This document shows positions 29,363 to 29,684 of a stretch of DNA of 34,928 nucleotides, in pieces. The notes under the pieces are model-generated. The model saw nothing but the letters and a program-made list of their open reading frames with translations. It ran no database searches and was not told the DNA's origin. The first letter of the stretch is position 1; every line of letters starts with the position of its first letter. Source of the stretch: a virus (lineage: Duplodnaviria > Heunggongvirae > Uroviricota > Caudoviricetes); the IMG/VR virus record IMGVR_UViG_3300026224_000021; one strand, given 5' to 3'. The translations under genes and the position numbers were made by a program.

Positions 29363-29531
29363 GGTGTGGCCTCTTTGGTTGTAAGTTTTGAAAACTCACC
29401 ATCCAGAGGTGGAAAACTCGGGGTGGTGAGACGTACAGGGTTTCCACAACCGGCAACCAAAGAACCCGGCCCGACCGAAGTCGGCCCCATACGCCCCACC
29501 ATAATTCGTGTGCGAAAAAGACGTGGCGATA

Positions 29532-29552
29532 CGGTACGCACAAAAAAACCGC
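29532..29552 (-). terminator. intra-operon terminator-like hairpin in the early region
   Basis: stem aaccgc / gcggtt with 4-nt loop; on the minus strand it is followed by seven U (plus-strand A-run 29532-29538). Confidence 0.45.
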
Positions 29553-29684
29553 TGGCGCGGTTGTGCGCTTTGGTTGTCAGCGGGGTGGAAATCCCGGCAC
29601 CCGTTTTATGAGGTGCAGCGGAAATGTAACCTGACTGATTGCGGCATGGCAAGCGGTTTTTTTGTGTGTGCATGTTCTGGTTTC

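Follow-up and report, generated by a model that had tools for sequence, protein, structure and literature searches.

A probable P4-type RNA immunity cassette in the early operon of a P88-like prophage

The long gap in the early operon of the prophage studied here is probably a P4-type RNA immunity cassette that acts through a translational block and premature transcription termination, with translated read-through as a bypass. That a functional C4/IsrK antisense cassette is present is nearly certain; for the bypass, which would use an eta-like open frame, the chances are about even.

The window, i.e., the whole stretch of DNA that was analysed (34,928 nt, IMG/VR record IMGVR_UViG_3300026224_000021), is a P88-like (Xuanwuvirus, P2-family) prophage, and its closest phage records are Citrobacter phage Shae_phiSM, vB_EcoM-569R5, PV468777, and P88. 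The early operon lies on the minus strand. It starts with the Cox gene, which is followed by small genes, a MarR-like 88-aa gene, a 99-aa gene, and the cassette; 3' of the cassette come, in this order, a 76-aa gene, a 121-aa gene, replication gene A, and a ParM/ParR-like pair. An earlier reading, made from the sequence alone, had drawn attention to a gap of 322 nt among otherwise tightly packed early genes, and both observations hold. The flanking minus-strand ORFs, of which the 99-aa one has its stop at 29685 and the 76-aa one its ATG at 29362, place the gap at exactly 29363-29684, and it stands out because the early genes next to it overlap or abut. The features referred to below are as follows.

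33543-33908, HTH repressor gene, divergent from the Cox gene
33539-33075, minus, Cox gene, start of the early operon
29984-29685, minus, 99-aa ORF, whose stop borders the gap
28693-29673, minus, eta-like open frame; its ATG at 29673 is upstream of the -35 element and 11 nt past the stop of the 99-aa gene
29623-29652, minus, promoter-like site: -35 TTGCCA (29652-29647), 18-nt spacer, -10 TACATT (29628-29623)
29542-29616, minus, IsrK-type leader (seqA region of P4), Rfam RF01394, 64.3 bits vs. a gathering score of 50
29616-29597, minus, leader hairpin 1
29591-29585, minus, b1, UUUCCAC, presented by leader hairpin 2
29576-29568, minus, a1, CAACCAAAG, single-stranded in the leader
29562-29547, minus, stem AACCGC/GCGGUU of the intrinsic terminator (6 bp, GC-rich, found by a terminator scan), with seven U at 29548-29542
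29507-29541, minus, spacer from the leader terminator to C4; contains a weak hairpin, GUGCG...CGCAC (-7 kcal/mol, z = -1.85)
29419-29506, minus, C4/CI-type antisense RNA, Rfam RF01695, 80.5 bits vs. a gathering score of 45
29462-29454, minus, a', CUUUGGUUG, loop of the second C4 hairpin
29447-29441, minus, b', GUGGAAA, C4 internal loop
29409-29415, minus, b2, UUUCCAC, part of the P4 seqC equivalent, complementary to b'
29395-29401, minus, UGGUGAG, the complement of CUCACCA (29424-29430) in the 3' strand of the C4 closing stem
29381-29373, minus, a2, CAACCAAAG, complementary to a' and overlapping the Shine-Dalgarno sequence AAGAGG (29375-29370) of the 76-aa gene
29132-29362, minus, 76-aa gene, related to the helper-derepression protein Eps of P4 and predicted to come first among the genes that C4 controls
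25879-28686, minus, replication gene A (935 aa), Pfam Phage_GPA at 1.3e-127, distal gene of the putative controlled transcription unit

Two RNA families and a promoter-like site in the gap

An Rfam scan of the whole window, which had been proposed as a check together with the sequence-only reading, returned exactly two matches, isrK and C4. Both are on the minus strand, both lie in the gap, and both exceed the gathering scores. The isrK match spans model positions 1-77 of 77 (E = 1e-11 for the whole window), and the C4 match spans positions 1-87 of 87 (E = 2e-14 for the whole window). A permissive scan of the region found no other Rfam family in or around the gap at E <= 1, and no tRNA or tmRNA genes were found in the window. 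The isrK-C4 pair is also present in P4 and nine other phages; in P4, the isrK match covers 8692-8615 and the C4 match 8507-8420, both ahead of eps and the alpha replication gene. Two papers equate the pair with seqA-CI of P4 (PMC3632133, PMC4825925), and Hershko-Shalev et al. describe IsrK as a homologue of seqA (PMC4825925).

In the C4 element, a 17-bp closing stem encloses a UUCG hairpin, a second hairpin, and an internal loop; the minimum-energy fold is identical to the Rfam consensus (z = -3.4), and not one of 200 shuffled sequences folded as well. The UUCG hairpin (CCGAC-UUCG-GUCGG, 29484-29471) falls within the interval of about 29470-29495 in which it had been noticed earlier. The stem followed by seven U is also real, but the position first given for it, 29532-29552, was about 10 nt off. 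Folding and covariance across related prophages had been named as a further check, and the hairpins turned out to be conserved, with compensatory changes. Over 13 diverse phages, the C4 structure was paired in 100% of cells, with 13 compensatory pairs; in 50 close relatives, the intramolecular helices were paired in 99.8% of cells, with five compensatory pairs, as when hairpin 1 changes from CCGAC/GUCGG to CCAGC/GCUGG. Owing to such compensatory changes in hairpin 1, 17 of 82 loci (16 relatives and P4) escaped a regular expression for the C4 core. Leader helices were 98.7-100% paired in relatives. Changes in the hairpin of the spacer, as read from the alignment, leave wobble pairs.

An internal promoter had been listed among the possible functions of the gap, and a candidate site was found. 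The promoter scan match is only 9 of 12 positions with an 18-nt spacer; the isrK model begins 7 nt downstream of the -10 element, and the -35 and -10 hexamers are unchanged across 50 relatives. In P4, a promoter-like site (TTGCCT, 18 nt, TATAGT), which we take to be PLE, occupies the same position relative to isrK. Upstream of the ATG at 29673, the relatives show at least six unrelated sequence contexts, and they are alike from the ATG onward. The invariant hexamers, the P4 counterpart, and the change of context at the cassette edge argue that the cassette very likely brings its own promoter. A small RNA, an internal promoter, and a regulated terminator had been offered as alternatives. The evidence fits all three together, the small RNAs by Rfam scores above threshold and by strong covariation, and a putative regulated terminator by homology with the immunity region of P4 (PMC4825925, PMC10111431); the RNA family itself had gone unrecognised.

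Covariation between the C4 loops and their target sites

The sequence GGTGGAAA is present on the plus strand at 29408 and 29584 and has three copies in the whole window, while CTTTGGTTG occurs in the window only at 29373 and 29568, and its reverse complement once, at 29454. The ggtggaaa repeats pointed out in the sequence-only reading are b1 and b2, the target sites of one C4 loop. The two C4 loops match both the upstream and the downstream set of sites perfectly, over 9 nt in the case of a' and over 7 nt in the case of b'.

The cassette is present in each of the 80 IMG/VR loci with a gene for a relative of the 76-aa protein (70-100% identity). Covariation was evaluated on an alignment of 50 distinct cassette versions with ~90% mean identity, and most of the variation was found in the three sets of a/b sites, which change jointly. 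For C4 loops and leader sites, 99.6% of cells were paired vs. 72.5% in shuffles, with 181 double-change cells and compensatory changes in 11 of 16 pairs; when the partner was shifted by 1-3 columns as a control, pairing dropped to 25-51%. For C4 loops and downstream sites, 98.4% of cells were paired, both sides had changed in 176 cells, and 10 of 16 pairs showed compensatory changes. When the downstream sites were considered separately in the 50 relatives, b2-b' was paired in 100% of cells (compensatory changes in four of seven pairs), and a2-a' in 97% (six of nine). The covariation is thus direct evidence, from evolution, for pairing of the loops with both sets of targets and for a role of the sites in setting specificity. 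Thirteen a' types and five b' types were found in 17 combinations, one a type being combined with three different b types; the combination in the window is present in three of 82 loci. The same site geometry was seen in P4, N15, Salmonella phage 118970_sal3, cdtI, TL-2011b, and several Stx phages.

Two relatives depart from the rule. In locus L014 (2201-2512), the a' loop fits CAACUACAG, while the a1 and a2 sites of the same locus are CAACCAAAG. In locus L026 (2201-2512), b' and b2 belong to the UUUCCAC type, whereas b1 reads UUCUCAC. Recent recombination, immunity escape, or chimeric assembly could account for these mismatches.

A further complementarity involves the closing stem of C4. Every module contains, at a fixed distance between b2 and a2, a segment of 7-9 nt complementary to the 3' strand of the stem: UGGUGAG/CUCACCA in the window, GGCGAUAGC/GCUAUCGCC in P4 (L002), and GGUGGUAGC/GCUACCACC in N15; it was also seen in records L083-L091. 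In 13 diverse modules, 93% of segment-stem cells were paired, five of nine pairs were compensatory, and none of 500 shuffles was as good. Given this covariation, an alternative hairpin is expected, mutually exclusive with the C4 stem, in which b2 could occupy the loop.

The same pairing could be read in the opposite direction, with the short terminated leader RNA as the main effector, a trans activator that binds the a'/b' region of C4 or of the long transcript and thereby allows translation of the genes downstream, and C4 not primarily a repressor. This is the IsrK model of Gifsy-1, which has the same families in the same order, and where IsrK supplied in trans raised orf45-anrP translation more than 100-fold (PMC4825925). 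In our case, b1/a1 are perfectly complementary to b'/a', and the intrinsic terminator of the leader is conserved, as the model would have it. However, the a2/b2 sites over the ribosome-binding site co-vary with the loops equally tightly, which fits a C4 repressor and would be superfluous for a pure activator. Moreover, the immunity factor of P4 that was defined genetically is CI (PMC4825925, PMC10111431). We therefore consider it unlikely that the leader is the main effector. Leader activation agrees with the data and may occur alongside C4 repression, and the leader could serve as a decoy for C4; the literature differs on the role of pairing with the leader, which is needed for immunity in P4 but activating in Gifsy-1 (PMC4825925).

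The open frame across the cassette and its annotation

The gap had been described as structured and non-coding. The structured RNA is there, but the gap is not without open frames: from the ATG at 29673, a frame runs without a stop across the entire gap. This eta-like frame crosses the leader, C4, and the target sites, and then passes through the 76-aa gene in the +1 register. In the window, a 1-nt indel joins it to the 121-aa ORF (ATG 29058), resulting in a mechanical ORF of 326 aa. The indel is located near 29058-29075, where the window has GTAGTAAAGAGG and most relatives have GTAACAAGAGG (e.g., PV468777 (L001), ~5925-5945). The eta-like frame of most relatives terminates in the AUGA where the 121-aa gene begins; the window and a few others have the in-frame fusion. 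Counted from the AUG at the 5' end of C4, the frame is 147-149 codons long in 70 of 82 loci, and in each of eight such relatives inspected its UGA stop shares bases with the AUG that starts the next gene.

The frame is stop-free in 54 of 57 distinct relatives; of the remaining two frames, one always has stops, and the other has stops in all but five of these relatives. An in-frame ATG is present in every upstream context of the relatives. Shuffles left a given cassette frame open in 1.9% of cases. For the 76-aa gene, the +1 frame was open in 0.7-3.5% of codon-usage resamplings and in 18-49% of within-gene synonymous permutations; with the latter value, the evidence from openness is suggestive rather than decisive. 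The openness of the frame looks maintained, and could still be the result of chance plus shared ancestry. Outside the a/b sites, 26, 30, and 33 variable columns fall on codon positions 1, 2, and 3, respectively, and neither a coding-type substitution pattern nor codon periodicity was found in the eta-like frame among the relatives.

These numbers bear on the label that the region carries in databases. Translation of the gap frame matches Pfam PF10554 (Phage_ASH) with 29.9 bits against a cut-off of 26; the translation passes this threshold, hence the RefSeq/PGAP label "ash family protein". If the gap encoded a genuine Ash family protein, conservation would reflect protein function, and this explanation can call on the Pfam score, several PHROG matches, the RefSeq label, the open frame in 54 of 57 relatives, and the conserved in-frame ATG. 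Nevertheless, it is very improbable. Variable columns show no third-position bias, and variable positions preserve RNA base pairs among three separate sites. Local frame-shifting indels are tolerated, and the translation is rich in S/T/A/P/G and overlaps a real gene out of frame. The best-scoring P4 sequence for PF10554 (59.7 bits) is an ORF annotated as cI gene product/transcriptional repressor that overlies the CI RNA; we regard this annotation as an obsolete call, since the immunity factor of P4 is the CI RNA (PMC4825925). Ash was thus rejected as a protein under sequence selection, given the lack of codon-position bias and variation that tracks RNA pairing. PF10554 and PHROGs 995, 6928, 821, 29966, and 3960 match translated isrK-C4 DNA (29344-29673, minus, in the window; 8171-8584 in P4, L002). 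PF10554 and the matching PHROGs may largely model translated RNA genes or an ORF that is a ribosome track. A mechanical ORF of 78 aa in the gap (29543-29307) had no Pfam match.

Also very improbable is a plain intergenic attenuator, in which a terminator and incidental hairpins lower read-through with no trans-acting RNA, since it accounts for the conserved canonical terminator (6-bp GC-rich stem and U7) but leaves unexplained the C4 match, the three-way covariation of loops and targets, the conserved promoter-like site, and the identical layout in P4, N15, and lambdoid phages.

Proposed mechanism, related systems, and distribution

The first gene downstream of the cassette encodes a protein with 29% identity to P4 Eps (BLASTP, E = 2e-8). 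It matches phrog_3688 at 1.7e-37 and is annotated as "derepression protein" in PV468777; its score with Pfam PF25738 (Derepression), 22 bits, is under the cut-off of 27. The comparison supports homology of the 76-aa protein to Eps. NCBIfam gave no match for the 76-aa, 99-aa, or gap ORFs. The 121-aa protein was considered as a relative of P4 ORF151 and rejected (E = 0.16); it matched no Pfam or NCBIfam family, and only phrog_3237, of unknown function.

For the P4-type immunity cassette, we infer promoter activity, RNase P processing, and Rho dependence by analogy, and likewise partial termination in the leader, translational repression of the 76-aa gene, and termination before gene A. In the lysogen, the internal promoter would be constitutively on, as transferred from P4, P1, and Gifsy-1. 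Part of the transcripts would end at the leader terminator and yield a short IsrK-like RNA, while read-through transcripts would be processed to a stable C4 RNA of ~80-90 nt with its 5' end generated by RNase P. Processing of C4 RNA by RNase P is known from the P1/P4 literature. The C4 loops would pair with b2 and a2 and block translation of the 76-aa gene, and the untranslated transcript would end early, in a Rho-dependent manner in P4, before the 121-aa gene and gene A. Pairing of C4 with b1/a1 in the leader may add to the control or buffer C4. The variable a/b sites would define immunity specificity.

During lytic growth, transcripts would come from the early promoter on the Cox side and carry ribosomes, which could re-start at the ATG at 29673 and translate the eta-like frame across the cassette. 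Such translation may avert termination and bring ribosomes to the 121-aa and A genes, which would render transcripts from the early promoter insensitive to C4. There is a precedent in P4, where eta is translated only from an upstream promoter, in a manner coupled to the upstream gene, and where its translation blocks immunity-specific termination, both according to PMC10111431, which summarises Forti et al. 1999.

P4 resembles the window in the order of elements (promoter-like site, isrK leader, C4, targets, Eps-type gene, replication gene). The sites are arranged alike: b1 sits in the hairpin 2 loop of the leader, with a1 a few bases further on and ahead of the terminator; a' and b' are in two C4 loops; b2 comes just after C4, and a2 lies over the Shine-Dalgarno sequence of the first gene. 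P4 also has, in the same register, a 199-codon open frame through PLE, seqA, CI, and seqC, which is eta. The differences are several. P4 is a satellite, whereas the window is a complete P2-family phage with Cox, HTH repressor, gpA, terminase, and portal genes; its replication gene is gpA rather than the alpha primase. In P4, kil/eta precede eps; the window has no kil-like first gene, and thus a2 is placed directly on the eps-like gene. The leader-C4 spacer is ~70 nt shorter in the window. In the window and its relatives, the eta-like frame ends at, or fuses to, the next gene, which is not the case in P4. Finally, unlike in P4 and lambdoid phages, the eta-like frame of the window is out of frame with the first controlled gene.

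The C4 antisense RNA of the P1/P7 c4-icd-ant system is the type member of RF01695, the family to which the C4 element of the window belongs. As reportedly found by Citron and Schuster in 1990, the a'/b' loops of P1/P7 pair with sites on either side of the RNA gene, of which the downstream ones cover the ribosome-binding site; specificity is said to change by compensating changes in loops and targets, and an antirepressor-type function is said to be controlled. While icd/ant are the controlled genes in P1/P7, in the window it would be an Eps-like gene, with the cassette also gating a replication gene.

Lambdoid phages and N15 have isrK and C4 between regulatory and replication genes with the same geometry. 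In several lambdoid records, the CDS annotated across the cassette encodes the Rha/Bro/Ant-type antirepressor itself, whereas the frame of the window misses the frame of the first gene. In Gifsy-1, the isrK-orf45 (STnc1160)-anrP region resembles the window in having an IsrK leader with a terminator, followed by a complementary processed RNA of ~80 nt downstream of IsrK (PMC4825925). An ORF runs through the STnc1160 region and has an AUGA overlap with the next start (PMC4825925), and the same AUGA is seen in relatives of the window. The Gifsy-1 ORF has only 45 codons, the controlled gene is antiterminator/antirepressor-like, and the leader was shown to be an activator.

Knowledge of IsrK-C4 (seqA-CI) immunity goes back to the 1990s, and Rfam has models of it. 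The RNA families, the pairing logic, and specificity by compensating loop/target changes are already established. We found no description of the cassette in a full P2-family phage ahead of an Eps-like gene and gene A, of an out-of-frame eta-like track, or of such a breadth of reassorting specificity types. It is tempting to propose, as a tentative reading with somewhat less than an even chance of being right, that P88-like P2-family phages have a hybrid, two-layer immunity, in which a P2-type repressor/Cox switch is combined with a P4-type RNA cassette gating an Eps-like antirepressor and gene A. The reading would jointly include three features that are absent from descriptions of P4: the eta-like frame would be open only as a ribosome track, a co-varying alternative hairpin would rival the C4 closing stem, and the a/b sites would reassort freely, creating at least 17 immunity specificities on a near-identical backbone. 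If this is true, such a pattern would imply that heteroimmunity is favoured by strong diversifying selection, possibly directed against P4-like satellites. The location of the immunity and derepression module of satellite P4 in a full P2-family phage, directly before gene A, bears on the origin of the P4 module and on helper-satellite cross-talk. In addition, 13 x 5 co-varying types on near-identical backbones make a clean natural data set for the evolution of antisense-RNA specificity.

The cassette is found in 1155 of 5426 complete E. coli genomes (21%), where it is usually unannotated or named "ash family protein", a recurring annotation error. A copy with 99% identity is present in E. coli O157:H7 strains (e.g., NZ_CP066748), and some genomes have 2-4 copies. 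In lambdoid phages, isrK and C4 lie inside a long CDS annotated as "antirepressor" or "regulatory protein", between cII/cro and the replication genes, and the N15 CDS "transcriptional repressor" (gene 32) overlaps C4; these observations come from records L085, L087, L089, L091, and L086 (~840-1700) and L084 (1000-1290). LC710661.1 is the only record among those inspected in which both RNAs are annotated as RNAs.

Two minor observations concern the surroundings of the cassette. PV468777 (L001) matches the enterobacterial sRNA STnc130 (137 bits) at 22-156, by the integrase end, which is probably host sequence at the attachment site; the window has no such match. Directly after gene A, at 24524-25802 (minus), the window carries a partition system composed of ParM (StbA_N plus ParM C-terminal domain, 5.8e-82) and a plasmid-stability (ParR-like) protein, which hints at a plasmid-like maintenance option for this P2-family prophage.
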